A stretch of 59,968 nt of DNA from Acidiferrobacterales bacterium (GCA_036446455.1 JAZFSZ010000093.1:1-59968), one strand, 5' to 3'. Shown: positions 19,274-35,172, numbered from the stretch's first letter. Notes: generated from the letters alone by a model not told the origin. Made by a program: numbers and translations.

Positions 19274-19398
19274 TAACGAGTTCAGCAATGCATCCCTGTA
19301 TAGACTACTATAGCGCGAAAAAGCTGGTGCAGCGCCCCAACTTATAAAATTAATATAGACCAAATACCGTGAGCTTAAACCCGGTAAAGTTTGGTGCC

Positions 19399-20445
19399 TC
19401 AGTTTTTGGGAAAGGCGACCAGATGGTCCGCCTCGATACGGATACCCACTTTTTCACCAATGCGGTGGTCGGCGTGACTGGGGAACAGGGATAGTAGTCG
19501 ACCGCCATCGGGCAACTGCAAGGTGTACATGATTTCTGCCCCTTTGAAGGCCTTTTGCAGGATTTCCACCCTTAAATCACTCTCGGGATCCGGAACGACA
19601 TCATCAGGCCGCAGCAGCATTTCTATCGATGTACCAACGCTCCAGTCGTAAGCACGATTGCCTTCATAGGTGCCGAGATTCGTTTCGATGCGGTCAGGTG
19701 CCACCAGTGTGCCATCGATAAACACACCCTGACCGATGAAATCGGCAACGAAACGGCAATTGGGCTCGTGATATAGATTATAGGGGGTGTCCCACTGCAG
19801 CAGTTTACCCTCGTGCATGACACCCACCTGGTCACCAAGGGCGAATGCCTCGTGCTGGTCGTGGGTGACCAGCACCAGGGTTATACCCTGTTTTTTCAGT
19901 ATTTGCCGGACTTCCTCGCTCAAGCGTTCACGCAAATCAATGTCAAGATTTGAGAAGGGCTCATCCATCAGGATCAGGTCCGGTTGCGGCGCTAGTGCCC
20001 GTGCCAGCGCCACGCGCTGTTGCTGGCCGCCGGATAATTCATGGGGATAACGATTTCCCATGCCCTCCAGTCCGACGATCTCGAGCATCGCCTGCACGAT
20101 CTGGGTCTGGTGCGCGTTTGGCAACGGCCCCAGTCCAAATGCAATATTTCGCGCCACATTGAGGTGGGGAAAAAGCGCATAGTCCTGAAACACCATGCCA
20201 AGTCGTCTTTTCTCCGGTGGCAAGGTGAAACCGGGGGACGAAACCGGTCTCTCGTTCAGTCGGATTTCGCCGGCATCCAGAGAATGAAATCCCGCGATCG
20301 CGCGTAATACTGTGGTTTTGCCACAGCCGCTAGGGCCCAGCAGGCATACCAGACTGCCACGATTGACGTGCATGGACAGACCGCGCACGATCACGTGGTC
20401 GTCGTAACTGCACTCGACGTCCTTAAGGGAGAGCATCTCGTTCAA
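19399..20445 (-). CDS. ABC importer-type ATPase (FbpC/PotA-like with C-terminal TOBE-like domain), orphan
   Basis: Walker A GPSGCGKTT, signature LSGGQQQR, Walker B LILMDEPFSNLD. No permease or binding-protein gene is adjacent. Confidence 0.8.
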   Translation of the reverse strand: MNEMLSLKDVECSYDDHVIVRGLSMHVNRGSLVCLLGPSGCGKTTVLRAIAGFHSLDAGEIRLNERPVSSPGFTLPPEKRRLGMVFQDYALFPHLNVARNIAFGLGPLPNAHQTQIVQAMLEIVGLEGMGNRYPHELSGGQQQRVALARALAPQPDLILMDEPFSNLDIDLRERLSEEVRQILKKQGITLVLVTHDQHEAFALGDQVGVMHEGKLLQWDTPYNLYHEPNCRFVADFIGQGVFIDGTLVAPDRIETNLGTYEGNRAYDWSVGTSIEMLLRPDDVVPDPESDLRVEILQKAFKGAEIMYTLQLPDGGRLLSLFPSHADHRIGEKVGIRIEADHLVAFPKN

Positions 20446-20541
20446 TGAAATGAGTTTCTGCCAGATTTGACCATCGCCTGGATGATAACAAATCTCATTG
20501 AGCCATGTTGACCTGACAGCCTCAGTGGCAAGATTGTGGAC

Positions 20542-21450
20542 TCATTTCGGCGCCAGCAGAAATTCCAGCAACGCCTTTTGCGCGTGCAGCCGGTTTTCAG
20601 CCTCGTCCCAGACCACACTTTGCGGTCCATCGATAACGTCGGCGTCCACCTCGAATCCTCGATAGGCGGGCAGGCAGTGCATGAACAGGGCATCTTTATT
20701 TGCTTGTGCCATAATTTGTGCCGTCACTTTATGCAGGTGAAAGGCCTTGTTGCGATCAGATTTTTCATCTTCCTGGCCCATGCTGGCCCAAGTGTCAGTG
20801 ACCACCACATCGGCGCCTTCAGCGGCAGCCATGGGGTCGCGCTCCAGGCTGACGTGTTCTTTGCATTCGGCCATTAATTCCGCCTCAGGGTCGTAACCCT
20901 CCGGAGTCGAAATCACCAGCTTGAATTCCAGCAAGCGCGCGGCATTCATCCAGGAGTGACAGACATTATTGCCATCCCCCAGCCAGGCGACGGTTTTGCC
21001 AGCGATATCGCCACGGTGTTCAATATAGGTCTGCATGTCGGCCAGCAACTGGCACGGGTGGTACATGTCGGTCAGCGCATTAATTATCGGAACCTTTGAG
21101 TGCGCCGCGAAGTTCTCCACCTTGGCGTGTTCACTGGTGCGCATGACGATAACGTCCACCATGCGTGACATAACCCGTGCGGTGTCCTCAATGGGTTCAC
21201 CGCGACCGATTTGCAGGTCACTTGGTGACAGGAACATGGCGCTGCCACCCAGTTGCGCCATGCCTGCCTCGAACGACACCCGCGTGCGGGTGCTGGACTT
21301 GTCGAACACCATCGCCAGTGTTTTGCCACTCAATGGCGCAATCATTTTACCGGCCTTGTGGACAGTCTTGAGTTCTGCCGCGCGTGCGAGCAACTGCCGA
21401 AACTCGTTGGCACTGATATCCATTAACGACAGGAAGTGGCGTAGCTTCAT
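20542..21450 (-). CDS. argF: Ornithine carbamoyltransferase
   Basis: 302 aa. Motifs STRTRVSFE, HPCQLLAD and HCLPA. Confidence 0.9.
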   Translation of the reverse strand: MKLRHFLSLMDISANEFRQLLARAAELKTVHKAGKMIAPLSGKTLAMVFDKSSTRTRVSFEAGMAQLGGSAMFLSPSDLQIGRGEPIEDTARVMSRMVDVIVMRTSEHAKVENFAAHSKVPIINALTDMYHPCQLLADMQTYIEHRGDIAGKTVAWLGDGNNVCHSWMNAARLLEFKLVISTPEGYDPEAELMAECKEHVSLERDPMAAAEGADVVVTDTWASMGQEDEKSDRNKAFHLHKVTAQIMAQANKDALFMHCLPAYRGFEVDADVIDGPQSVVWDEAENRLHAQKALLEFLLAPK

Positions 21451-22631
21451 GACTTAGCCGGAAAATCTTCGAGTAACTCTGTTATGCCGGTCGCAAGCTG
21501 GTCGCATTGGTCTTCTGAGAGAATCAGCGGTGGCAGCAGGCGTACCACGTTGCCGGTGGTGACGTTGATTAACAGACCTTTTTTCAGTGCCGTCGTCATC
21601 ACCTCGCCGCAATCGCGGTCAAGCTCGATAGCCAGCATCAAACCTTTGCCGCGAACCTCGCGCACACCAGGCAGACCCGCGAGCGCGCTTTGTAGTTTTT
21701 GCAATAAGGTCTGGCCCAACGTGTTGGCGGCCTGGTCCAGTTTCTCATTCTCCATGGTGGTAAGCACCGCCAGTGCAGCAGCGCAGGCCAGCGGATTGCC
21801 GCCATAGGTGCTACCGTGTTTGCCGGTCACCAGTGTTTCCGCGGCAACACCGCGTGCCAGGCAGGCACCGATGGGCATGCCGTTACCCAGCGCCTTGGCC
21901 AATGTCATCACATCGGGGACTACATTTTCGTATTGCGCAGCGAACCACTTGCCGGTCCGGCACAGACCGGTTTGAATTTCATCGAGGATCAACAGCCAGT
22001 CATTGTCGTCGCAGATCTCGCGCAGGCCTGCCAGATAACCGGCAGCCGGTATAACCACACCCCCTTCACCGAGTATCGGTTCCACCAAGACCGCGACCAC
22101 ATTGCTGTTGTTACTGGCGACCTGGCGTATGGCATCGAGGTCGTTATAGGGGACGCGGGCAAAACCCTGAACCAGTGGTTCAAAGCCGGCCTGTACCTTG
22201 CGGCTACCGGTAGCCGTGAGCGTTGCCATGGTACGACCATGAAAACTCTGGTCGGTGACAATAATGGTCGGGACATCGATGCCCTTGTTGTGACCATAGA
22301 GCCTTGCCAGTTTGATCGCGGTCTCATTGGCCTCGGCGCCAGAATTGCTGAAAAACACGCGCTCCATATTCGACAGCGCGCACAGGCGCTCGGCCAGTGC
22401 TTCCTGTATCGGAATCCGGTACCAATTAGAAGTGTGCAGCAGTGTTCCGGCCTGATCGCAAATGGCCTTGGTGACAGCGGGGTGGGCATGACCCAGCGAA
22501 CACACGCCGATGCCGGTGAGTGCATCCAGGTATTTGTTGCCATCGGTATCCCACAGCCAGGCACCTTGCCCGCGTGCGAACGCCACTGGCAATCGACCAT
22601 AGGTCTGCATGAGAAAAGACGCTTTAGCCAT
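21447..22631 (-). CDS. argD: Acetylornithine aminotransferase (class III PLP aminotransferase)
   Basis: 394 aa. Motifs SNSGAEANE and DEIQTGLCRTGKWFA. Its stop overlaps the argF start by 4 nt. Confidence 0.85.
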   Translation of the reverse strand: MAKASFLMQTYGRLPVAFARGQGAWLWDTDGNKYLDALTGIGVCSLGHAHPAVTKAICDQAGTLLHTSNWYRIPIQEALAERLCALSNMERVFFSNSGAEANETAIKLARLYGHNKGIDVPTIIVTDQSFHGRTMATLTATGSRKVQAGFEPLVQGFARVPYNDLDAIRQVASNNSNVVAVLVEPILGEGGVVIPAAGYLAGLREICDDNDWLLILDEIQTGLCRTGKWFAAQYENVVPDVMTLAKALGNGMPIGACLARGVAAETLVTGKHGSTYGGNPLACAAALAVLTTMENEKLDQAANTLGQTLLQKLQSALAGLPGVREVRGKGLMLAIELDRDCGEVMTTALKKGLLINVTTGNVVRLLPPLILSEDQCDQLATGITELLEDFPAKS

Positions 22632-22725
22632 AAAAACAGAAAGCGCCCTGCAAGCAGGGCGCTACCTTTAATCAATATAAGATGAAATTCTAGTCCCTAA
22701 TTCCGGGTCTGCCAAGCCCAAAATG

Positions 22726-22755
22726 AAACAGGCCCGGTAAATACCGGGCCTGTTT
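22726..22755 (-). terminator. Stem-loop terminator candidate after the PuuD-like membrane gene
   Basis: 12-bp perfect stem AAACAGGCCCGG-TAAATA-CCGGGCCTGTTT, followed on the minus strand by CATTTTGGG. Confidence 0.5.
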
Positions 22756-22776
22756 TGGTGACCATGTCGCCTGAAT

Positions 22777-23268
22777 TTACATGGGCAAGCCATGGGGACC
22801 CACCACCATGAAAAACACCATCGGAATCGACAGCAAGGTATTGGTGCGGGAGGCGAGCAGAGCAATACGGGCGGCGCTGGCTTTTTCCTCGGCGCTGGCT
22901 TTCTTCAGCCCCAAAACTTTCTGCTGGTTCGGCCAGATCAGCACCCAGACATTGAAGAACATGATGGTGCCCAGCCAGGCGCCGATACCAATGAGAGCGC
23001 TGGCGCCCTTCAACATAAAAGCGTCGGCAAAGCTCAGGTGCGGCGCGGCCATCAGGTAGTAGGCACCAGTCACCCACGTTGCCAGGGCCGCGTACCGGAA
23101 CCAGAACAGGGCCTTGGGTGCTATGAGCTTGGGTACGATATCGGCAGCAATGCCGTCGGCCTTGGCCTTGCCCATGGCAGGCACTTGAACAAAATTGAAA
23201 TAATACAGCAGGCCGATCCAGGTGATGCCAGCCAGAATATGTAACCAACGATCCAGAATAAGATCCAT
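22777..23268 (-). CDS. Integral membrane protein resembling the N-terminal membrane domain of PuuD-type urate hydroxylase
   Basis: 163 aa with four helices. The N-terminal string WLHILAGITWIGLLYYFNFVQ recalls proteins annotated as PuuD-like. Assigned from memory only. Confidence 0.5.
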   Translation of the reverse strand: MDLILDRWLHILAGITWIGLLYYFNFVQVPAMGKAKADGIAADIVPKLIAPKALFWFRYAALATWVTGAYYLMAAPHLSFADAFMLKGASALIGIGAWLGTIMFFNVWVLIWPNQQKVLGLKKASAEEKASAARIALLASRTNTLLSIPMVFFMVVGPHGLPM

Positions 23269-23300
23269 AGTGAGTAACCTTTTATTTTTTACTTAATGGC

Positions 23301-23405
23301 TTAACCGGCCACAACCAGGAATTTGGTTGCGATCAGGTAGAGTATGACTGTCAAAACGAATCCGGAAACGATCGTTCCGGTAACGGAATCCAGAGGATTC
23401 TTCAT
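23301..23405 (-). CDS. 34-aa single-helix membrane peptide (not in the ORF track)
   Basis: The ATG at 23405 is preceded by the SD AAGAGG at -12 to -7. Sequence MKNPLDSVTGTIVSGFVLTVILYLIATKFLVVAG, with TAA at 23301-03. It lies 32 nt upstream of, and co-oriented with, the PuuD-like gene. Confidence 0.4.
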   Translation of the reverse strand: MKNPLDSVTGTIVSGFVLTVILYLIATKFLVVAG

Positions 23406-23512
23406 GAATTTGCCTCTTTATTAGTGAGTTAGTGTGACTTACTTTGAATGACTTAAATTAAGTAGTTGACCATTTTGGTCGGGCGCTAATCTATGCCACT
23501 CTTGCCGATATT

Positions 23513-23926
23513 TCAAGCACTACCGGCGTCTACTGATATGCCGTCGTGGGCGGCTTCGTCTTCCGGCAAGATGCGCTCCTGCAGCACACGCCACTTTCCG
23601 TCATCCTCTTTCTGGATAATGATCTCGATACCATTGCAGTTACGGGTGCCATCATTGGCCTCAACGGTTTCCAGGGTTTTAAACATAACCCGGCCGGGCG
23701 ATTGGGCCACCACCTTCATTGGTCCGTAAGAGACACTCTTAAGTATATTGTTGTCGAATTCATGCCGGCATTGGCGGGCCCAGTCGTCATAACCGATCAC
23801 CTCAAAACCGGGAATGCCGAATACACTCACTTCCTGCGAGATCAAGTCCATGTGGGCAGCGTAGTCTTTGTCGCAGGCGGACCGCGCCATCTCTTGCAAC
23901 AGTTTTTCGGCTGCCTGAACGCTCAT
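23513..23926 (-). CDS. NTF2/SnoaL-like fold protein (hypothetical)
   Basis: The ATG at 23926 has the SD GAGGA. The product of about 137 aa has size and pattern typical of SnoaL/DUF4440-type proteins. This is a weak call. Confidence 0.4.
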   Translation of the reverse strand: MSVQAAEKLLQEMARSACDKDYAAHMDLISQEVSVFGIPGFEVIGYDDWARQCRHEFDNNILKSVSYGPMKVVAQSPGRVMFKTLETVEANDGTRNCNGIEIIIQKEDDGKWRVLQERILPEDEAAHDGISVDAGSA

Positions 23927-24385
23927 TGTTTCGATCCTCATCCTGGTAAAGTCTGCAGTTTCCTCCGGCCTGGTTGCCAAGAGTGCACTGTCTATTTGTT
24001 ATGGGGCGCACATGCTACCGCAAAAACATTTTAATCGTGAACCCTATTTCCGCTCGATCTCCGGGTTTATCCGCGATTATTGAACCGACGTGCGAACTAA
24101 CAACAAACTGTTTTTACCAGTTAAACTAATTTCTGTTACGTGGGGTAACGTGCTGCTAATTGCATCGATTTGTCGCGATCTGCTGGTCTCTACGGGAATT
24201 CCCGGTGGCGTGATCGCCATACAAAAGTGGCAAAAACAGTTGTCTTGACCTCTATAGGCAAAAAAACGATTATACCGCCCTCGTTGCGGCTGGTAGAAAT
24301 TATCGGCCGTCAATAGTGACCGCAATTATTGCTTGGTGACGATTCGTTATCCCACCAACTACCGTACTGCACATTAGGGAGACCT

Positions 24386-25393
24386 ATGAAGCCCGAAGAC
24401 CAGAAACGCCTTTTGCGTGAAATGATTTTCTATCGCCGTTTTGAGGACCGCGCCTTCGAAGCCTATATGGAGCGCAAGGTCGGCGGATTCCTGCATTTAT
24501 ATTCCGGCCAGGAGGCGGTGGCTACGGGTGTGCTGGAGATGGCCCAGACCGGGCATGACTACGTGATTACCGGTTATCGCGACCACATTCATGCCATCAA
24601 GTCCGGCGCCCCGGCGCGTGAAGTGATGGCCGAACTCTACGGTAAGGAAACCGGTTCCAGCCGCGGCCGTGGGGGTTCCATGCATATTTTTGATCCCACC
24701 GTGAATTTCATGGGCGGTTACGCGTTGGTCGGCCAACCGTTCCCGTTGGCGGCAGGGTTCGCGCTCGGCGCCAAACACCGCGGCGAAGGCCAGATATCCA
24801 TTTGTTTTCTCGGTGACGGCGCCAACAACCAGGGCACTTTTCACGAGACCATGAATATGGCCTCGGTGTGGGAGTTGCCCGTTTTATTTGTTTGCGAGAA
24901 CAACGGCTACGCCATTGGCACCCATATCGATCGATCCACGGCGGTGACCGATCAGTACAAACGTGTGGCCGCCTATAACATGAAGGCCAGCCAGCACGAC
25001 GGCATGGACATCGATATTGTGATGGAAGCAGCCGTCGACGCGATCAAGTTTGTGCGCGAAGAACAGAAACCCTATTTCATCGAATTTATGACCTATCGCT
25101 ATCGCGGCCACTCCATGTCCGATGCCAAGGGTTATCGCACCCGCGAGGAAGAAGCGGAATGGGAAAAGCGCGATCCCATCAAGATTTATACCGAACGTCT
25201 CAAGAAAGCCGGATTGATTACCGATGCCGATATCAAAACATGGGAAAAGGAAATCGATCACGAGATGGAAAACGACATTATCAAGTTTGCCGAAGAAAGC
25301 CCCGAGCCATCAGTGGAAGAGCTGACGCGCTACGTGCTTGATGACAACCCGGATCCGCGCTGGATCGGGCCACTGGTTAACGAAGGAGAATAG
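24386..25393 (+). CDS. pdhA: 2-oxoacid (pyruvate/acetoin) dehydrogenase E1 alpha subunit, ThDP-binding
   Basis: ThDP motif GDGANNQG...ENNGYA. The ATG at 24386 has the SD AGGGAGA. Confidence 0.85.
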   Translation: MKPEDQKRLLREMIFYRRFEDRAFEAYMERKVGGFLHLYSGQEAVATGVLEMAQTGHDYVITGYRDHIHAIKSGAPAREVMAELYGKETGSSRGRGGSMHIFDPTVNFMGGYALVGQPFPLAAGFALGAKHRGEGQISICFLGDGANNQGTFHETMNMASVWELPVLFVCENNGYAIGTHIDRSTAVTDQYKRVAAYNMKASQHDGMDIDIVMEAAVDAIKFVREEQKPYFIEFMTYRYRGHSMSDAKGYRTREEEAEWEKRDPIKIYTERLKKAGLITDADIKTWEKEIDHEMENDIIKFAEESPEPSVEELTRYVLDDNPDPRWIGPLVNEGE

Positions 25394-25395
25394 GC

Positions 25396-26376
25396 GTGGC
25401 CGAGATTGCATACTGGGAAGCCATTCTGCGCGCCCACGACGAAGAACTTGCCAACGACAAAATGGTTATCGCCATGGGCGAGGATATTGGTGTTGTTGGT
25501 GGAACCTATAAAGCGACAATGGGGCTCTACGAAAAGTACGGCTCGGAGCGCATTATTGATACGCCGATCTCGGAGAACTCCTACACCGGTATCGGCATTG
25601 GCGCTTCCATGGTCGGCATGCGACCCATCGTCGAGATCATGTCTATTAACTTCGCCTTGCTGGCGCTGGATACCATTATTAATGCCGCTGCCAAGATCCG
25701 TTACATGTCTGGCGGCCGTGTGAGCTGCCCGCTGGTGATTCGCACCCCGGGTGGCACTGCGCACCAGCTGGCGGCGCAGCATTCTGCACGACTGGCACGT
25801 GTGTTTATGTCGACCGCGGGGCTACGTGTGGTGACTCCCCGCGGACCACTGGATGCCTACGGTATGTTGAAATCGGCGGTTCGCTGCAATGACCCCGTGA
25901 TCATTATCGAACACGAACGCATGTACAACATGAAGGAAGAGATACCCGACGAGGAATTCTTCCGTCCACTGGAAGGCGCCGAGATCGTGCGCCACGGCAG
26001 CGATATTACGCTCATTGGTTACAACTACAGTGTACACCTGTGCCTGGGTGCGGCAGACAAGCTGGCCAAAGACGGCATCAGCGTCGAGGTGATTGATCTG
26101 CGCTCGTTGAAACCGCTGGACCGTGAGACCATTCGTCGTTCGGTGGAAAAAACCCATCGCGTCGTCATTGCCGAAGAGGATGAGGCGCCGGTCGGAGTGG
26201 GTGCGGAGATCATGGCGGGTATTAACGAGGACTGTTTCTTCGCACTGGACGCCCAACCCATTCGCATTCACGCAGCCGATGTGCCGGTGCCCTATAACAA
26301 ACGTATGGAAAAGGCGGCGATCCCGGATGTGGAAGATGTCTACCAGGGCGCACTCAAGGCACTGGGCAAGATTTAA
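25396..26376 (+). CDS. pdhB: 2-oxoacid dehydrogenase E1 beta subunit
   Basis: 326 aa. GTG start after the SD AGGAGA. Transketolase-like pyrimidine-binding and C-terminal domains (IDTPISENSYTGIGIGA, IDLRSLKPLD). Confidence 0.85.
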   Translation: MAEIAYWEAILRAHDEELANDKMVIAMGEDIGVVGGTYKATMGLYEKYGSERIIDTPISENSYTGIGIGASMVGMRPIVEIMSINFALLALDTIINAAAKIRYMSGGRVSCPLVIRTPGGTAHQLAAQHSARLARVFMSTAGLRVVTPRGPLDAYGMLKSAVRCNDPVIIIEHERMYNMKEEIPDEEFFRPLEGAEIVRHGSDITLIGYNYSVHLCLGAADKLAKDGISVEVIDLRSLKPLDRETIRRSVEKTHRVVIAEEDEAPVGVGAEIMAGINEDCFFALDAQPIRIHAADVPVPYNKRMEKAAIPDVEDVYQGALKALGKI

Positions 26377-26457
26377 CCTGCAGTTTTCCATGTTAAATTT
26401 TCAATGTTTAAATAATGACACTGGTGTATCAATACGCCAGCGCTAAATCGCTTTGAT

Positions 26458-29400
26458 ATGAGTGCTCCTTACATAATAAAAATGCCACAGTTGTCGGATA
26501 CCATGACCGAAGGTACGGTCGTGTCCTGGGAAAAGAATGTTGGAGATTTTATCGAGCGTGGCACGGTAGTCGCCACAGTAGAGACCGACAAGGCCATCAT
26601 GGATGTTGAAGTCTTTCACGAAGGTTACCTGTCTGGCCCCGTGTCCGCCATTGATAGTGTCATTCCCGTGGGCAATGCCATGGCGATATTGGTAGCTGAC
26701 AAGAAGGACGTGGTTGAAGGCGAGGGTGTTCCTGTCATTACTGGCAGCTTGGCAAGTGGGACAGAATCTCCAGGCGACGATGCCGCACCCGCCATAGTGG
26801 TTGAAACACCCGAAGGCGCTCATGCTATCAAGATGCCGCAACTGTCCGATACCATGACGGAAGGCACCATGGTGGCCTGGGAAAAAGAACTGGGTGAGCA
26901 CATCTCGCGTGGCACTATTGTAGCGACAGTGGAAACTGACAAGGCCATCATGGATGTCGAAGTGTTTCGTGAAGGTTATCTTTCCGGTCCCATCGCAACC
27001 GTCGACAGTGTAGTGCCAGTGGGTGAGGCCATTGCCTTTCTGGTTGACGACAAGAGCCAGGTGCTTAGCAGTGAACGCACTGCTGGCGGCGGCGGCGTTG
27101 CCATGCCGGTCGCCGTGCCGAAGTCTGAACCAGCGGGCACAGCCAAGCCGAAAACCCATATTCCGGCGATGCCCCATGGCGCGACACCGGTGCCGCGTCC
27201 AGGCAATGCCAAAGCAACGCCCTATGCACGCCAGCTCGCTGGCGCCCACGGTATCGACCTTAATCACATTAAAGGTACCGGTGCCGATGGCGTTATTGTT
27301 GCTGCGGATGTATTGAATGCGGACGTTCAAAAGACTTCGATAAAGCGCATCTTCCAGGTGGCGGGCGTAGGTCGCGCCATGAACAGCATGGAAAAAGCGG
27401 TGGCGCACAACATGGAATACTCGCTTTCCATGCCGCTTTTTCGCGTCACAGTAAATATACAACCGACAGCACTGAAAGCAGCTGCAAAAAAAGCAAGCGC
27501 CTCGTTTACCGTCGCCATCGCCAAGGCAGCGGCCCTGGCTATATTAAAACACCCGTCAATCAATTCGGTTTACCAGCACGAAGATCGCATAATCGAGCGT
27601 GAACAAGTTGATATTGGTCTTGCTGTCGAAACCGAAGGTATGGGTCTGGTGGTGCCGGTATTACGTGAAGCTGCGCACCGTTCGCTGCCGGAGCTAACGG
27701 CGGACTGGGCCGACCTGGTGGCACGTGCGCGCAAGCGCCGCTTGAAACCGGAAGAATATTCTAACCCGACGTTTACGATTTCCAACATGGGCATGATAGG
27801 CGTAGCTCAATTTGATGCCATTCCCACGCCAGGTACTTCGGCTATCTTTGCTATTTCAACCGCCGGACCAGACGGCATGCCGGTGACGATCACAGCAGAT
27901 CACCGCATTGTTAATGGTGCCGATGCCGCCAAGTTCCTTAACACGTTTAAAGGATTGGTGGAAAATCCAATATGGCTAGGCGGTGGTGTTGCGACACCGG
28001 TTGCCGCGTCCAGGGGCGAGTCGGCGATACCGCAGGGCGACTGGGATTATGACGTGGTGGTGATAGGTGGTGGGCCGGGTGGTGAGGATTGTGCCCGCGA
28101 TCTGGTGCAATACGGTCTCAAGGTGGCAATGATCAATGATTCCCCATTTCCGGGTGGCGAGTGTTTGTGGCGTGGCTGTATTCCTTCCAAGGCCTGGCGG
28201 GCCAGCGCCGATCGTATGCGTGACCGTGCCCATGATGCCCGGCTGGGGGTGAAAGGCACAAATAAGCCGGAGCACAACTGGAAGATGCTGGAAGAGACCC
28301 GTCGCGGCATACTTGAAACACGCGGCAGCATGGCGCTGAAGACTGATAAGGGTGTAAAAATAGATGTGATTCAGGGTTTCGCACGTTTCGCGTCGGACCA
28401 TAGCGTTGAGATTGACAGCGGCGGTAATAGCAAAGATCCGCATGCGCGGGCCGTACCGGGTGATGCGACAAAAACTAAAAAGGTGTCTTTTGGCGTGGCG
28501 GTTATTGCCACCGGTGCGCCGCCGTTTGTGCCGCCCATTGAGGGGGCAGACAGCAACGGTGTGCTTACTTCCGATACCGTCTGGAATTTGAAGGCGGCAC
28601 CCAAACGTCTTGGAGTAATCGGTGCCGGTGCCATCGGACTGGAGATGGCGCAGATCTTTGCCGATTTTGGTGCCAAGGTCACCGTGATCGAGGCCCTGGA
28701 TCGATTGCTGCAGGAAGTGGAGCCGGAAATTGCCAAGACACTTACGACGCTACTGGAAAAGGAAAAAAACTTAACGCTTGTCACCTCGGCCAAGGCCAAA
28801 AAGATTTCAGGCAAGCCCGGTGAAATGACACTTGCCTATGAAGATGCCGAGGGTAAGAAGAAATCATTCAAGTGTGATTATGTAGTGATGGCGACGGGTA
28901 AGCGCCCGGTGCTGGAACCATTGGCACTGGACAAGGCTGGAGTGGCTGTTGATAAAAATATTATCCAGATCGATAAAACGGGACGCACCAGCGTGCCGCA
29001 CATCTTTGCTGTCGGCGATGTTGTCGGCGGTCTGATGTTGGCGCACACCGCCGGGCGACAGGGTCGTGTAGCGGCCATGACTATCATGGGTGAAGCAGCG
29101 TTCTACGATCAGTCCAAGGATTGCGGCGTTATTTTTACACGTCCGCAGGCGGCATTTGTCGGTGTCTCAATGGACCAGGCTAAAGAGACCGGCATGGATG
29201 CAGTGGAAGTTAAAGTGCCCATGAGTATTGATGCCAAGGCAATGATTAATGGTGAAACAGATGGCCTGATAAAAATAGTGGTCGATAAAAACAACCATCG
29301 CATCGTCGGCGTGCATTTCCTGGCTGATCACGCTGACACCCTGATTGGTGAAGCGGTGATGATGGTATCGGGCGAGATGACACTGGAGCAAGTGGCCATG

Positions 29401-29496
29401 GCAATCCATCCACACCCCACCCAGACTGAGCTCTTTGGTGACATGGCGCGTCGTTTGTTATCTCGATTCCGTCGCAGCGAAGCCCGCAAGAACTAG
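26458..29496 (+). CDS. Fused E2-E3: dihydrolipoamide acyltransferase (2 lipoyl domains, E3/E1-binding domain, catalytic core) joined in frame to dihydrolipoyl dehydrogenase
   Basis: Two lipoyl domains carry ETDKA (Lys45 and Lys162). PSBD is PYARQLAGAHGIDLNHIKGTGADG. E2 active site is DHRIVNG (residue 481). From residue 528 a complete flavoprotein disulfide reductase follows: VVIGGGPGG, redox CLWRGC, C-terminal HPHPTQTE. There is no stop or frame change between the modules. Confidence 0.85.
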   Translation: MSAPYIIKMPQLSDTMTEGTVVSWEKNVGDFIERGTVVATVETDKAIMDVEVFHEGYLSGPVSAIDSVIPVGNAMAILVADKKDVVEGEGVPVITGSLASGTESPGDDAAPAIVVETPEGAHAIKMPQLSDTMTEGTMVAWEKELGEHISRGTIVATVETDKAIMDVEVFREGYLSGPIATVDSVVPVGEAIAFLVDDKSQVLSSERTAGGGGVAMPVAVPKSEPAGTAKPKTHIPAMPHGATPVPRPGNAKATPYARQLAGAHGIDLNHIKGTGADGVIVAADVLNADVQKTSIKRIFQVAGVGRAMNSMEKAVAHNMEYSLSMPLFRVTVNIQPTALKAAAKKASASFTVAIAKAAALAILKHPSINSVYQHEDRIIEREQVDIGLAVETEGMGLVVPVLREAAHRSLPELTADWADLVARARKRRLKPEEYSNPTFTISNMGMIGVAQFDAIPTPGTSAIFAISTAGPDGMPVTITADHRIVNGADAAKFLNTFKGLVENPIWLGGGVATPVAASRGESAIPQGDWDYDVVVIGGGPGGEDCARDLVQYGLKVAMINDSPFPGGECLWRGCIPSKAWRASADRMRDRAHDARLGVKGTNKPEHNWKMLEETRRGILETRGSMALKTDKGVKIDVIQGFARFASDHSVEIDSGGNSKDPHARAVPGDATKTKKVSFGVAVIATGAPPFVPPIEGADSNGVLTSDTVWNLKAAPKRLGVIGAGAIGLEMAQIFADFGAKVTVIEALDRLLQEVEPEIAKTLTTLLEKEKNLTLVTSAKAKKISGKPGEMTLAYEDAEGKKKSFKCDYVVMATGKRPVLEPLALDKAGVAVDKNIIQIDKTGRTSVPHIFAVGDVVGGLMLAHTAGRQGRVAAMTIMGEAAFYDQSKDCGVIFTRPQAAFVGVSMDQAKETGMDAVEVKVPMSIDAKAMINGETDGLIKIVVDKNNHRIVGVHFLADHADTLIGEAVMMVSGEMTLEQVAMAIHPHPTQTELFGDMARRLLSRFRRSEARKN

Positions 29497-29669
29497 CCCA
29501 TCCTCCCCTGTAAGCCCGGCGAGTGCTGTACTTACCGCCGGGAATACCTCGTCTACTGCATTGTGTTGTGTATAATTCCTGCCTTGGCAATTCGTTAACT
29601 GCCTGGTCTGCCGTTTTCGTACGGCAGCCCAGGCAAGTTTTAACTCACTATTGGAGATTGCGCAGAGTC

Positions 29670-30884
29670 ATGTCGCAAGTAAAAAAAGTGGTACTCGCCT
29701 ATTCGGGTGGACTGGATACCTCGGTCATTCTCAAGTGGCTGCATGAAGTCTATGACTGTGAAGTGGTGACGTTTACCGCGGATATTGGGCAGGGCGAAGA
29801 AGTTGAGCCGGCACGGGCCAAGGCCAAAGCGCTGGGCATCAAGGAAATCCATGTCGAGAACTTACGCGAGGAGTTTGCGCGCGACTACGTGTACCCCATG
29901 TTTCGCGCCAATACCATTTACGAAGGCGAATACTTGCTCGGTACCTCCATCGCCCGGCCGTTAATCGCCAAGCGCCTGGTAGAAATTGCCGCTGACACCG
30001 GCGCCGATACGATCTCCCATGGTGCCACTGGCAAGGGAAACGACCAGGTCCGGTTTGAACTTGGTGCTTATGCATTGGCACCTGACATCAAGATTATTGC
30101 ACCGTGGCGTGAGTGGGATCTTAATTCAAGAGAGAAACTGCTGGCCTATGCCGACAAGCATGGTATTGCAGTAGACAAAAAACCGGGTGAAAAATCACCA
30201 TACTCCATGGATGCCAACCTGCTGCATATTTCTTATGAAGGTGGCATCCTGGAAGATCCCTGGGCGGAACCGGAAGCGGGCATGTGGCGCTGGACGGTTT
30301 CCCCCGAGGACGCACCGGATGAAGCCACCTATATCGAGCTGAGTTTCGAGAAAGGAGACATCGTTGCCATTGACGGTGTGGCCATGTCACCAGCGGTGCT
30401 GATGGAGACACTGAACAAGCTTGGCGGTGCCAACGGTATCGGCCGTGATGATATAGTCGAGAATCGCTATGTTGGTATGAAGTCCCGTGGTTGTTATGAA
30501 ACGCCAGCCGGCACTATTATGCTCAAGGCGCACCGGGCGATGGAATCGCTGACGCTGGATCGCGAAGTGGCACATTTGAAAGATGAGCTGATGCCGCGCT
30601 ATGCCAGCCTGATTTACAACGGCTACTGGTGGAGTCCGGAGCGTGAAATGCTGCAACAGATGATTGATGCCTCGCAACAGACAGTTTATGGCAAGGTGAA
30701 GCTGAAACTCTACAAGGGAAATGTCACTATAATAGGTAGGGCTTCTGTAACCAATAGCCTGTTTGATCCAGCCATTGCCACCTTTGAAGACGATGCCGGT
30801 GCCTACGATCAGGCCGATGCCGGCGGGTTTATCAAGCTCAACGCACTACGGCTGCGTATCGCTGCGCGCCTTAAAAAGTCCTGA
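29670..30884 (+). CDS. argG: Argininosuccinate synthase
   Basis: N-terminus [19 protein letters not shown] (ATP pyrophosphatase motif) with the SD GGAG. The track ORF's 49-aa upstream extension is rejected. Confidence 0.9.
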
Positions 30885-30987
30885 TTTCCAACCGATTGTG
30901 CCTCGGAATTAACTATACTTATCTGGATAGATTACGATGGCGCTGCGCCATACATTCTCCTGTACACCTAAATTAGGTTAAGCCGGT

Positions 30988-33900
30988 TTGGAATACGATT
31001 CGATATCTGCGCATGCCTTTAAACGTAAATTTGGCCAGCTGATTTTAATCACCTGGCTGGTCCCGCCGGTATTCAGTCTGTCGTTCCTGTTGTTTATCCG
31101 CCTGCTTACGCCTGAACAGATTGGCATCATTCTGCTGACGCCAATCGAACCCGTTTTTATTATTGCATCGCTTCTGTTTGCATACTGGTACCTCAATCGC
31201 TGTATAAAACCGGTGGTGCAATTTCTTGGTGAAGGTGGAATTTTGCTGAGTGAGACTGCGCTGAACAGCATGCGGCGATTTCCTCTTCACTACTGGGGTC
31301 TCTTTATAGCGTACCTGCTACTGGCACCGGCCTCGGTAATTATCGCCGCAGAGATCTACACCGATTTTGTTGCACGTCCAGTGGACTGGTTCCGTATTCA
31401 CCTGGTAGCACTTATCGTCTCCATCATTGTTGGTCTGCCAATCTTTTTCAGAATACTCGATCTTTTTGGTCGGGCCGTCAGCAAAGCGGTGCTTACCAGG
31501 CCTCATGTCACCCTGAAGACAAAAGTTTTTCTAATCGGTGCGTTGGTGCCGCTACTGATCAGTACCACACTGGTGCAGTATTACTGGACGCGAACCGGCT
31601 ATTTCGGTGTCGATACCTTCGCTATGTGGTTAATCCTCGAGTTGCTGGCCATTGTCGGCAGTTTGTTGTTTATGCGAAGTATGGGGCAGTCGCTTCAACC
31701 GCTGCAGGAGTTAATTGAATCGCAGGCGCAAGTGGGTGCGATGGATGTGACGCAAATCCGGGCACTGTCTACCGATGAACTGGGTGTTATTGCTTCAGAT
31801 ATCCGCGTTCTTGCAGAACAGCTGAAACTGCAAAACGAGATTCTGGAAATTCGCAACCAGATACTCGCCGGTTCTTCGTCAGAAATGAAGGAAGAGGCAA
31901 TCATTTCCATTCTTGATATCTGTGATGCCGCGTTTGGAGCGGACAAGTCGTTCATTCTCATGTATGACGCCAGCACCAACGAAATGGTAAATGTGGCCTT
32001 TACCGGCAAAGAATATAATGCCAACGGATATTACCGACTGCCGCTGACCTCGGGTGCATCGTTGGCAGTATTATCTTTCAAGGCTAACCAGACGATTTCG
32101 ATTGCCGATGTCACGCAGGACAAACGTGTGAATCCGTTGGTCATGGAACAGCAGGGCATTCTTTCCTGTATTGCCACACCGCTGCGTTATGGCGACGCTA
32201 TTATTGGCACATTAATCGCGACTTCCAGCACACAACATCGTGAATTTAATGAACGCGATGTTCGGTTGATTGAAGCATTGGCGCAGGAAACGGCGCTGGT
32301 CATACATACGCTGACACTGCACCAGGAGCAACGAAAGGTGGAGCAACGTTATCGCGAGCTCAATGAACTCGCGCCAGACGCGATCTTGTTACTTGACAGC
32401 GACGCCAATATTGTGGAACTCAATCGTACTGCCGAAGTGTTACTGGGGGGCAGGGAAGAAGATCTTGTAGGTAGATCCGTTACAAAGTTTATAAAAAATT
32501 GCGAACCGGAGGATCTTGAAAGCGTAATGTTACGCGCTACTGTCGGTGACAAACGGCTGTTCCAGGCGGAGTTGATTGCCGGCAACAGTGAGGATGTTTT
32601 CGTCGAGATCCATGCCGCGAGGCTTGAATTGGATGGCAAAGTGATGACGCAGGCATTTGTGCGCGATGTAACGCGGCAAAAGGAAGCAGAGAGGGCGCTT
32701 CTGCTTTCCCAGGAAAAGCTTGCCTTACATGTCGAGCAAACTCCTTTGGGTGTGATCGAGTGGAATACGGACTTTGAAGTTGTTGAATGGAATCCGTCTG
32801 CAGAGAAGATATTTGGTTATACAAAAAAAGAAGCATTGTCACGTCACGCGCGCGATTTGATTATACCTGAATCGACTCTGGCGCATGTAGACGAGATCTG
32901 GGCCGCGTTAGTTAACCAAAGTGGAGGATTGCGCAGCACAAACGAGAACATTACTCGCGACAACAACATAATAATCTGTGAATGGTACAACACCCCTTTG
33001 GTTAATGATTCAGGTGATGTGGTTGGAGTGGCATCCCTCGTGCGCGATGTTACCGATAGCAAATTTGCAGAGGACAGCATCCGGCGCTCGGAAAAGGAGC
33101 TAAGCAGCATCCTCAACAGCCTGCAGGATACCTTTTATCGGACCGACGTCGTGGGACGGATTGTAAGAGTCTCACCATCGGTTGAGAATTTGTTGGGGTA
33201 TAAACCCGAAGAACTCCTGGGTACGAAGCTTTCCGATTTGTACGTGGACGAAACAGGACAGAAAGCGCTTATTAGGGAACTGGAAAAACAGAATGGTGTT
33301 ATCAAGGGATACCAGGTGGCACTGTGGCGCAAGGATAAAACTGCAATCTGGGCTTCGACCAATGCCCAGTATTATTTTAGTGACGACGGTAGTATTGCCG
33401 GAGTTGAGGGTACGGCACGTGATATCACCAAGATCCGGCGTACGCAAGAAGAGTTATTCAAGGAAAAAGAACGTGCACAGGTGACACTGGAGTCCATCGG
33501 TGACGGTGTGGTGACGACAGACGTCAGTGGCGGTATTGAGTACATCAATCCAGTGGCAGAACAGATATGTGGCTGGAACCTTGATGCTGCGGAAGGGCAT
33601 AGCTTTGAGGAAGTATTCTGTTTCCTGGAGGAGGTCACGCGCCAGCCAGTTGAAAGTCCCGTCATGCAGTGTCTCGAGAAACGTCATCCTATTTCCTCTG
33701 ACGTCAACATTGTATTGGTCGGGAAACAGGGTCGGGAGTTCGCCATCGAGTTTTCTGCCTCACCGATACGTGATCGTTTCGGCGGGTTGGCGGGCGTGGT
33801 GGTCGGACTGCATGACGTCACCGAGATGCGCGAATTGGCACAGCAACTCACACACCAGGCCACACACGATGCTCTCACCGGGCTGATAAACAGAAGAGAA

Positions 33901-35172
33901 TTCGAGCTACGCCTCAAAGAGGCGTTGCGTAGTGCCAGCTCGGAAGGCATGGAACATGCGCTGTGCTATCTGGATCTCGATCAGTTCAAAGTTGTCAATG
34001 ATACCTGTGGGCACATCGCCGGGGATGAACTGCTCAAGCAGGTAACAGCACGCTTGCGTGAGAAGGTGCGTAAGGCGGATACGCTGGCACGACTGGGTGG
34101 TGATGAGTTTGGCGTGCTATTGCGTGACTGTGGTTTGCCCACGGCAGAAAAAGTGAGCGATGAATTACGCAAGGTGGTGAAGGAGTTTCGTTTTTCCTGG
34201 AAAGATCGCATATTTGAAATCGGTGTCAGTATTGGTCTCGTGCCCATTGATGCCAATAGTGGCACCCTGACTGATATCCTGTCTGCGGCAGACAGCGCCT
34301 GTTATGCCGCCAAGGAACAGGGTCGAAACCGGGTCCACCTGTACCAGCCCGATGACAAGGTACTGGCACAACGTCATGGCGAAATGCAATGGGTTTCCCG
34401 AATCACTACCGCATTGGAAGAGGATCGCCTGGTAATATTCGGTCAGCGAATTCAGTCCCTGAAAAACAGTGCCGGTGATCATTGGGAGATTCTGGTACGT
34501 ATGCATGCTGACCATGGCGGCATCATACCCCCCATGGCGTTCATTCCGGCCGCCGAGCGCTATCATGTTATGCCCGCGATTGATCGCTGGGTGCTTGGGC
34601 GCTCATTCGAACTGATCGCGGAATACACGAAAGAACTGGGAAATCGTGCGCCAATTTTTAATTTTAATCTTTCCGGGCAATCGCTGTCGGATGATACATT
34701 CTGGAAGTTTGTTATTGACCTGATTGATCAACTTGCCATTAATCCGGAGAAAATCTGTTTCGAGATTACTGAAACGGCTGCCATTGCCAACCTCACTCAC
34801 GCGACCCGCTTCATTGCAGTAATGACGGGCATGGGTTGCCGATTTGCACTCGACGATTTCGGAAGTGGATTGAGTTCATTCGCGTACCTCAAAAATCTGA
34901 ACGTTACCTATTTGAAGATTGATGGTGGTTTCGTGCGGGATATGGTTGACGATCCTATTGACTACGCCATGGTGGAATCTATTAATCATGTTGGCCATAC
35001 TTTGGGTATCAAGACCATCGCTGAATTTGTCGAATCAGAAAAGATATTGAATGCGGTAAAAAATCTGGGTATTGACTATGCGCAGGGTTATCAAATTGGC
35101 AAGCCGGTCCCTATAGACGATGACTTCTTTGCAAACCATCTACAAGCCTTCGCAAATAAAGAGGAGTATTAG
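30988..35172 (+). CDS. Large membrane-anchored signalling protein: multi-TM N-terminal domain, GAF, about 4 PAS, GGDEF, EAL
   Basis: 1394 aa. RKAD..GGDEF is canonical. EAL set is EILVRM, FEITET, DDFGSGLSS, KIDGGF, AEFVES. TTG start, so the start is uncertain. Confidence 0.8.
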   Translation: MEYDSISAHAFKRKFGQLILITWLVPPVFSLSFLLFIRLLTPEQIGIILLTPIEPVFIIASLLFAYWYLNRCIKPVVQFLGEGGILLSETALNSMRRFPLHYWGLFIAYLLLAPASVIIAAEIYTDFVARPVDWFRIHLVALIVSIIVGLPIFFRILDLFGRAVSKAVLTRPHVTLKTKVFLIGALVPLLISTTLVQYYWTRTGYFGVDTFAMWLILELLAIVGSLLFMRSMGQSLQPLQELIESQAQVGAMDVTQIRALSTDELGVIASDIRVLAEQLKLQNEILEIRNQILAGSSSEMKEEAIISILDICDAAFGADKSFILMYDASTNEMVNVAFTGKEYNANGYYRLPLTSGASLAVLSFKANQTISIADVTQDKRVNPLVMEQQGILSCIATPLRYGDAIIGTLIATSSTQHREFNERDVRLIEALAQETALVIHTLTLHQEQRKVEQRYRELNELAPDAILLLDSDANIVELNRTAEVLLGGREEDLVGRSVTKFIKNCEPEDLESVMLRATVGDKRLFQAELIAGNSEDVFVEIHAARLELDGKVMTQAFVRDVTRQKEAERALLLSQEKLALHVEQTPLGVIEWNTDFEVVEWNPSAEKIFGYTKKEALSRHARDLIIPESTLAHVDEIWAALVNQSGGLRSTNENITRDNNIIICEWYNTPLVNDSGDVVGVASLVRDVTDSKFAEDSIRRSEKELSSILNSLQDTFYRTDVVGRIVRVSPSVENLLGYKPEELLGTKLSDLYVDETGQKALIRELEKQNGVIKGYQVALWRKDKTAIWASTNAQYYFSDDGSIAGVEGTARDITKIRRTQEELFKEKERAQVTLESIGDGVVTTDVSGGIEYINPVAEQICGWNLDAAEGHSFEEVFCFLEEVTRQPVESPVMQCLEKRHPISSDVNIVLVGKQGREFAIEFSASPIRDRFGGLAGVVVGLHDVTEMRELAQQLTHQATHDALTGLINRREFELRLKEALRSASSEGMEHALCYLDLDQFKVVNDTCGHIAGDELLKQVTARLREKVRKADTLARLGGDEFGVLLRDCGLPTAEKVSDELRKVVKEFRFSWKDRIFEIGVSIGLVPIDANSGTLTDILSAADSACYAAKEQGRNRVHLYQPDDKVLAQRHGEMQWVSRITTALEEDRLVIFGQRIQSLKNSAGDHWEILVRMHADHGGIIPPMAFIPAAERYHVMPAIDRWVLGRSFELIAEYTKELGNRAPIFNFNLSGQSLSDDTFWKFVIDLIDQLAINPEKICFEITETAAIANLTHATRFIAVMTGMGCRFALDDFGSGLSSFAYLKNLNVTYLKIDGGFVRDMVDDPIDYAMVESINHVGHTLGIKTIAEFVESEKILNAVKNLGIDYAQGYQIGKPVPIDDDFFANHLQAFANKEEY

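Follow-up and report, generated by a model that had tools for sequence, protein, structure and literature searches.

In canonical pyruvate dehydrogenase (PDH) complexes with an alpha/beta-type E1, such as those of Geobacillus stearothermophilus and mitochondria, the acyltransferase E2 forms a 60-mer core and free dimers of the dihydrolipoyl dehydrogenase E3 dock on its peripheral subunit-binding domain (PSBD). A different arrangement has reportedly been seen before: Powles and Rawlings are said to have described, in Microbiology in 1997, an 'unusual E2-E3 subunit fusion' in the PDH complex of Thiobacillus ferrooxidans. Our full-text literature search, with a coverage that takes in few subscription journals, turned up no publication on fused E2 and E3 in a PDH complex, nor any structural or biochemical work on complexes of this type. 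Here we analyzed a stretch of 59,968 nucleotides from an Acidiferrobacterales bacterium (GCA_036446455.1 JAZFSZ010000093.1:1-59968; the whole stretch is called the window), in which a plus-strand gene at 26458..29496 encodes E2 and E3 as a single polypeptide. We found that this gene very probably specifies the PdhC-type fused E2-E3 subunit of an alpha/beta-E1 PDH complex. The fusion architecture itself is already known and is common in sulfur-oxidising bacteria, and the window adds one member.

An earlier note, made from the sequence, had claimed a single uninterrupted open reading frame (ORF) of 1012 residues, and the ORF listing and translation bear this out: the frame starts with ATG and runs without an internal stop for 1012 residues up to its stop codon. 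Pfam likewise recovers the domain order given in that note (lipoyl, lipoyl, PSBD, acyltransferase, complete E3), and full-length homologues were found. Two Biotin_lipoyl matches open the chain, all features lying on the plus strand. Lipoyl domain 1 covers residues ~5-79 (26470..26694), with predicted strands at 5-79 at a predicted local distance difference test score (pLDDT) of 72-87, and lipoyl domain 2 covers residues ~122-196 (26821..27045), with its best stretch at 123-193; the putative lipoyl-lysines are Lys45 and Lys162. The PSBD follows at residues 252-286 (27211..27315), where Pfam E3_binding (PF02817) scores 47.3 bits against a cut-off of 23.7, and it aligns with solved PSBDs, e.g. 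1w4i, and with residues 351-389 of human E2p. The acyltransferase domain occupies residues 307-507 (27376..27978), contains S442, H482 and N486, and matches 2-oxoacid_dh (PF00198) over 307-505 with 166.1 bits. An Ala/Pro/Gly-rich linker at residues ~508-520 (27979..28017), whose length varies in the family, leads into the E3 module at residues 521-1012 (28018..29493), matched by Pyr_redox_2 (PF07992, 531-869), Pyr_redox (PF00070, 717-788) and Pyr_redox_dim (PF02852, 890-996), with TIGR01350 as its best NCBIfam match.

Every motif named in the earlier note is present in the translated protein, linker included: ETDKA at K45 and K162, DHRIVNG at 481-487, the Gly/Ala/Pro linker at ~507-520, GGGPGG at 537-542, CLWRGC at 569-574 and HPHPTQTE at 984-991. 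The E3 module begins with an ordered N-terminal extension, IPxGDWDYD, followed by the Rossmann motifs for flavin adenine dinucleotide (FAD) and nicotinamide adenine dinucleotide (NAD), the second of which is GAGAIG at 722-727 with E745. Its best solved relative is the E3 of Geobacillus stearothermophilus (1ebd_A), with which it aligns end to end at 250.8 bits; the best solved relative of the core is human E2p. Judged by its domains and residues, the chain carries both what marks an E2 (lipoyl domains with the DKA lysine, a PSBD, and a chloramphenicol acetyltransferase-like core with catalytic His and Ser) and what marks an E3 (Rossmann motifs, CxxxxC, a C-terminal His-Glu pair and a dimerisation domain).

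The junction between the two halves is intact in contigs of sequencing runs and in related genomes. In run X1, one Logan contig of 4368 bp covers 27400-28600 with 8 substitutions and 0 gaps, and in run X2 two overlapping Logan contigs also cover this interval with no indels or joints; both runs may derive from the window's source sample and so are not fully independent of it, whereas the comparative loci are independent. With a junction query of 211 residues (430-640), tblastn confirmed 575 places in species genomes, of which we kept 80. All 80 span the junction with the DHR of the core and the GxGxxG of E3 in one stop-free frame (71 scored by a strict pattern, the remaining 9 by a looser one). 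We also sampled 61 genomes from the order of the window; 40 of them gave a match at E <= 1e-40, and in 37 of these 40 a stop-free frame crosses the junction. The frequency differs by family, e.g. 13/13, 6/6, 10/13, 5/13 and 0/9. A search of 5.8 billion proteins returned at least 120 matches, and all of those listed are 828-1043 residues long, carry PF00198 and PF07992, share 66-100% identity and come from many contigs and sources. Some source names already call relatives E2 / dihydrolipoamide dehydrogenase. Hence, full-length fusions are widespread, and the fusion gene is natural and conserved and no assembly error. The covalent fusion of an E2 core to E3, which the earlier note had proposed to fix E3 at one per E2 chain, is genuine and conserved over many independent assemblies.

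Two loci deserve separate mention. Contig C136 of the same metagenome bin as the window (G000; locus L010, 1-10536) is collinear with positions 18657-28945 of the window over its whole 10.5 kb at 78-83% nucleotide identity. It bears its own E1alpha, E1beta and E2-E3 fusion with an open junction, the fusion being 828 residues long where it runs off the contig end and 88% identical in amino acids. We rejected this gene as a paralogue because the entire contig is collinear with the window at that identity; C136 is more likely a co-binned related population than a duplication. In one genome of the same order (G020:C14:35751-35984), only the E2 part of the junction query (residues 1-78) finds a match. 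The open frame there has 516 residues, and this relative may never have been fused or may have split later.

Among the 80 loci are some from complete Acidithiobacillus genomes (A. ferruginosus CF3, A. montserratensis GG1-14 and Acidithiobacillus sp. M4-SHS-6). In CF3, genes for E1alpha and E1beta accompany a 983-residue frame with the Pfam order and motifs of the window's fusion, and the two proteins are 58-60% identical. Acidithiobacillus PdhC and the window's protein share the pdhA-pdhB-pdhC gene order and the joining of two lipoyl domains, PSBD, core and E3 in one chain; they also share DHRxxNG, CLWRGC, HPHPTQTE, a hairpin deletion in the core, a W...IPxGD junction and an E3 clade. Besides the moderate identity, they differ at the junction, which is a few residues long in Acidithiobacillus and has an Ala/Pro-rich insert of ~9-10 residues in the window's clade. 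The E3 clade was seen in a FastTree tree of 125 E3 domains (SH-like support, no bootstrap) built from the 150 top-ranking representatives together with 7 selected members of the family, filtered to E3 matches of at least 400 residues: the 7 family rows, window and Acidithiobacillus included, form one clade with an SH-like support of 98. These shared features indicate that the window's protein has both descent and derived characters in common with the Acidithiobacillus protein.

Conservation within the family was scored as residue invariance in an alignment of 65 sequences and as motif counts over 122 homologues. K45, K162, S442, H482, N486, C569, C574, H986 and E991 are all invariant, as are D44 and A46 beside the first lipoyl-lysine, D161 and A163 beside the second, and most glycines of the FAD and NAD motifs. 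The Asn of DHRIVNG, which the earlier note had flagged as standing where Asp is usual, is a family-wide trait and no local oddity, since DHRxxNG is found in 121/122 homologues and 76/80 species loci. In the other 4 loci (L046, L055, L060 and L066) the motif reads DHRVVYG, with Tyr at this position, and these loci have the shortest junctions of the family. CLWRGCIPSK occurs in 122/122 homologues and HPHPT in 121/122; 1ebd has CLNVGC in place of the window's CLWRGC, and the E3 module carries an insertion of ~13 residues relative to 1ebd. Both the alignment with human E2p and a MAFFT alignment with unfused E2s and distant fusions reveal a 13-residue deletion in the E2 core: a hairpin that directly precedes the catalytic strand in other E2s is missing. 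In comparison with canonical alpha/beta-E1 PDH, the locus has the same heterotetramer-type E1 genes, lipoyl-PSBD-core modules and catalytic His/Ser; it differs in a core 13 residues shorter before the catalytic strand, in Asn for Asp in DHRxxDG, and in an E3 covalently joined to the C-terminal turn of the core.

This turn, a conserved Pro-x-Trp-(Leu/Met/Ile) with P504 and W506 invariant, ends the core, and a conserved (Ile/Leu)-Pro-x-Gly-x-Trp-Asp-Tyr-Asp extension opens the E3 module. MAFFT aligns the Trp-Leu of the turn with the terminal hydrophobic residues of unfused E2s, and the fused chain continues beyond them. From DHR to the first E3 strand we counted 42-71 residues across homologues. 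The junction is short in 33/80 loci, Acidithiobacillus included, and the DHR-to-strand distance is 43 in 29 of the 33 short-junction loci listed by the strict pattern; only ~5 residues, commonly Gly-Pro-x-Gly-Pro, then lie between the conserved blocks. With the extra insert of the window's clade, the distance is 52. AlphaFold2 modelled the window's protein at full length with a mean pLDDT of 72.8; residues 509-519 fall below 50, residues 521-530 average 84 and the E3 module lies mostly at 80-95. For the Acidithiobacillus orthologue, a core-plus-E3 model reached a mean pLDDT of 86.0 (core 65-93) and a predicted template modelling score (pTM) of 0.71, with no low-confidence segment at the junction, where the two blocks average 75 and 86. 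E3 alone makes up two thirds of the chain, and so this pTM is no evidence for a fixed orientation of the domains. By these distances and models, much of the family has a short and probably ordered connector, which is looser in the window's clade.

The fusion gene is preceded on the plus strand by the genes for both E1 subunits. pdhA (24329..25393) encodes E1alpha, which scores 279.5 bits with Pfam E1_dh and 406.6 bits with TIGR03182 (PDH_E1_alph_y; cut-off 393.85); its longest ORF begins at TTG, a tentative start. pdhB (25396..26376) encodes E1beta, with Pfam Transket_pyr and Transketolase_C and 376.9 bits with NF006667 (PDH E1 beta; cut-off 321). Genes for both E1 subunits precede the fusion on its own strand in 62/62 of the evaluable loci among the 80, i.e. 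those where the N-terminus was found with at least 2.2 kb upstream. The bin from which the window comes (2.2 Mb, 161 contigs, 88.7% complete, 3% contamination) also has a separate canonical LpdA, with 511 bits on TIGR01350, encoded on another contig (C111) in a sucA-sucB-lpdA-sucC cluster. A further flavoprotein gene, on contig C128, adjoins an arsenosugar radical-SAM gene; its product scores 416 bits with TIGR01350, just over the cut-off, and 507 bits with NF004991 ('FAD-containing oxidoreductase'; cut-off 620). An aceE-type E1 was searched for in this 88.7%-complete bin and not found, and the operon described here is the only PDH found in it. Hence, with canonical LpdA placed in the suc cluster and aceE not found, the fused E3 would be an extra E3 dedicated to PDH.

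Several observations weigh against reading the gene as a PDH E2-E3 subunit that acts as one chain. The E2 half scores 294.3 bits with TIGR01349 against a cut-off of 445, yet this is its best E2 model, and the E3 half scores 382.9 bits with TIGR01350 (385.4 in the genome search) against a cut-off of 408.8. The core is atypical in its hairpin deletion and its Asn for Asp, and it is modelled poorly in the full-length fold, with a pLDDT below 50 at 270-326 and 435-460. Some databases name relatives 'acetoin dehydrogenase E2', PDH as the substrate class is read solely from the E1 model scores, and the evidence lies at the level of the gene, so cleavage or internal initiation may occur. The sub-cut-off scores of both halves fit a divergent lineage, and for a divergent, shortened core a sub-threshold TIGR01349 score is expected; for the E3 module, TIGR01350 ranks first and the runner-up family is MerA, at 307.9 bits. 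A complex that uses the same fused subunit for acetoin or another 2-oxoacid would agree with the E2 half lying under the PDH E2 cut-off and with the source names of two relatives ('E2 of acetoin dehydrogenase complex / dihydrolipoamide dehydrogenase'). However, both E1 subunits score above their cut-offs (E1alpha on TIGR03182, an equivalog specific to PDH, and E1beta on NF006667), the top E2 model is the mitochondrial-type PDH acetyltransferase, the solved structures closest to the core are those of PDH E2p chains, and no aceE-type PDH E1 was found in the 88.7%-complete bin. We therefore consider a substrate other than pyruvate quite improbable.

The joined state of the gene and of its product can be questioned separately. 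A lost stop or an indel that merged adjacent E2 and lpdA genes is conceivable in a metagenome bin of 161 contigs with an estimated contamination of 3%, where consensus errors are possible. Against such an artefact, the contigs of two runs carry no indels over 27400-28600, the single frame is kept in all 80 species loci and in 37 of the 61 order genomes, complete genomes of cultured strains included, and the junction peptide is conserved, with W506 and the D530 and Y531 of the IPxGDWDYD segment invariant; the probability left to it is next to nothing. An intact ORF could still give two proteins, by proteolysis in the linker or by initiation before E3, and so build a conventional complex. The linker in the window's clade is Ala/Pro-rich, predicted to be disordered (pLDDT below 50 at 509-519) and accessible to proteases, in line with such processing. 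In the 33 short-junction loci, however, the connector has a few residues of fixed length and conserved sequence, unlike a cleavage spacer or an intergenic remnant, and it is predicted to be ordered in the Acidithiobacillus orthologue (pLDDT ~75-86). Moreover, the fusion persists down to 58-60% identity, which argues that the joined state itself is selected, and we judge two separate proteins to be very unlikely.

For the fused PdhC-type subunit of a PDH complex, the standard catalytic cycle would be expected, since the catalytic residues are invariant and the best solved relatives are human E2p and 1ebd. PdhA/PdhB would decarboxylate pyruvate and reductively acetylate Lys45 or Lys162, and the core would use His482 and Ser442 to pass the acetyl group to coenzyme A; its Asn486 takes the place of the Asp found in most E2s. 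The reduced lipoyl arm would then be reoxidised by the E3 module of the same particle through Cys569/Cys574 and FAD in an NAD-dependent reaction, with His986/Glu991 supplied by the partner chain of the E3 dimer. The fusion would set E2:E3 at 1:1 and reserve the E3 module for PDH, leaving the 2-oxoglutarate complex to the separate canonical LpdA. The data show the gene with its domains and operon, the conserved catalytic residues and the retention of the fusion among relatives; catalytic activity, dimerisation of E3 and binding of E1 at the PSBD are inferred from what is established for these protein families.

That the retained PSBD is left to bind E1 only, as the earlier note suggested, is plausible. 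Predicted with the family alignment, a complex of two E3 modules (528-1003) with the PSBD (247-290) scored 0.00 against a mark of 0.32, which speaks neither for nor against binding. After the conserved Arg, the PSBD of the family has Gln where five aligned PSBDs have Arg/Lys, and we gave this no weight. Of two acidic E3 residues that we take to be PSBD contacts in G. stearothermophilus, one appears to be kept as Asp and one to be replaced by Ser/Ala, under an assumed numbering offset; this comparison was likewise given no weight.

Fusions of E2 to E3 also occur outside this family. A search of 50%-identity cluster representatives contained one representative for the family described here. Distant E2-E3 fusions with a single lipoyl domain were observed as well (P0131, P0132, P0133, P0136, P0138, P0139, P0147 and P0248; 838-916 residues, 29-35% identity), and these have the canonical DHRxxDG, the full hairpin and motifs of the CLNxGC type. 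In the E3 tree, the 10 rows for distant fusions lie dispersed between free E3s, and the fusion label changes 8 times, with at least 5 changes forced by well-supported branches. This pattern suggests that the E2-E3 fusion was repeatedly gained or lost, in independent events. The nearest relatives of the fused E3 clade outside the family are a free E3 of 487 residues (P0125) and then P0128 (797 residues), a fusion of a lipoyl domain, an E3 and an AhpD-like carboxymuconolactone decarboxylase; by its domains, P0128 could form a self-contained NADH-lipoyl-AhpD chain that reduces peroxide.

In the surroundings of the operon, argG (argininosuccinate synthase) lies at 29523-30884, directly 3' of the fusion gene, and an argG homologue is found in 41/80 related loci. 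A class-III aminotransferase gene is at 21447-22631 on the minus strand, and at 30988-35172 on the plus strand is a gene for a signalling protein of 1394 residues with GAF, four PAS, GGDEF and EAL domains, which is unrelated to the fusion. A scan of 23400-31100 was uninformative, with 9 promoter-like sites where shuffles gave 6.6 and 11 terminator-like sites where they gave 7.8; one of the promoter-like sites, at 24245-24273, lies upstream of pdhA.

Other known architectures come close to the fusion in part. In the lipoyl-E3 fusions (Neisseria P64k, 1ojt and 1bhy; 5u25), E3 is likewise linked covalently to one portion of the E2 machinery, and 1ojt, 1bhy and 5u25 rank with the closest solved structures to the E3 module. 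Many E3 representatives of ~560-600 residues with an N-terminal extension also appeared in the cluster-representative search and in the tree. However, the lipoyl-E3 fusions have a lipoyl domain without PSBD or acyltransferase core, and so no conflict of trimer and dimer symmetry arises in them. The actinobacterial 2-oxoacid dehydrogenases, where fusion of components occurs (PMC12995895, PMC10415282), offer as precedents the OdhA E1o-E2o fusion, the trimeric E2p of C. glutamicum and the hexameric DlaT of M. tuberculosis. OdhA chains (8p5t) are among the structural matches of our core. There, E1 is joined to E2, not E2 to E3, and the window's core has a canonical-looking Pro-x-Trp-Leu end without the actinobacterial rearrangement. 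An engineered E2p 60-mer with a dimeric 'locking domain' (8eqn, E2p-L4P), also among the structural matches of the core, resembles the fusion in having a dimer-forming module on the C-terminus of the E2 core; it differs in that the locking dimers are at most 100 residues and sit inside the cage, whereas the natural E3 module has ~490 residues per chain.

How obligate E3 dimers could be arranged on a 24- or 60-mer core, a question raised in the earlier note, is a real geometric problem, and symmetry-compatible groups exist in principle. A trimeric core with a dimeric E3 should close only on the point groups D3 (6 chains), T (12), O (24) and I (60). With O or I symmetry, the two-fold axes that hold the C-terminal plugs would also hold the E3 dimers, and in principle this answers the question of symmetry. 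Space is a separate matter. The cavity of the E2p 60-mer is ~12 nm across, and on this figure sixty E3 modules of ~52 kDa would not fit inside. With a junction of a few residues, the E3 module can hardly thread its way out of the cage; the Geobacillus E2p cage has twelve 5-nm openings (PMC7091667). Small dimeric domains placed on the C-terminus of Geobacillus E2p were meant to stabilise the particle-forming interface 'from inside' (bioRxiv 10.1101/2020.08.22.262634), which suggests that the C-terminus lies on the inner side of the cage. According to PMC12995895, the C-terminal helix decides whether trimers build a 24- or a 60-mer, and in human E2p this helix (642-647) enters the pocket of the neighbouring trimer to give the icosahedral core; the same paper gives C. 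glutamicum E2p as a trimer only and M. tuberculosis DlaT as a hexamer.

Either the chain would leave the plug region sideways and place E3 outside a canonical cage, or a smaller or open assembly bridged by E3 would form. The E3 dimer may link trimers, because E3 follows the turn that normally joins them, because the junction is short and conserved in 33/80 loci and predicted to be ordered in Acidithiobacillus, and because the inner space would be lacking. Replacement of the cage by such a smaller or open assembly, with the E3 dimer as the two-fold connector of E2 trimers, is our tentative proposal, possible but doubtful. One candidate for it may be a D3 hexamer, made up of three E3 dimers and two trimers; a 12-mer of tetrahedral symmetry and an open lattice are others. 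The loss of the 13-residue hairpin, a family-specific change on the trimer, could reflect adaptation to E3-bridged packing.

The value of the find is structural, in what it says of quaternary structure, and does not lie in the gene itself. E2 cores are less uniform than in the textbook, as the trimeric and hexameric actinobacterial cores show (PMC12995895). In effect, nature has here run the experiment of joining an obligate dimer to the C-terminus of an obligate trimer, at the very element that normally builds the 24- or 60-mer core, and the fusion might give a natural template for self-assembling two-component cages.

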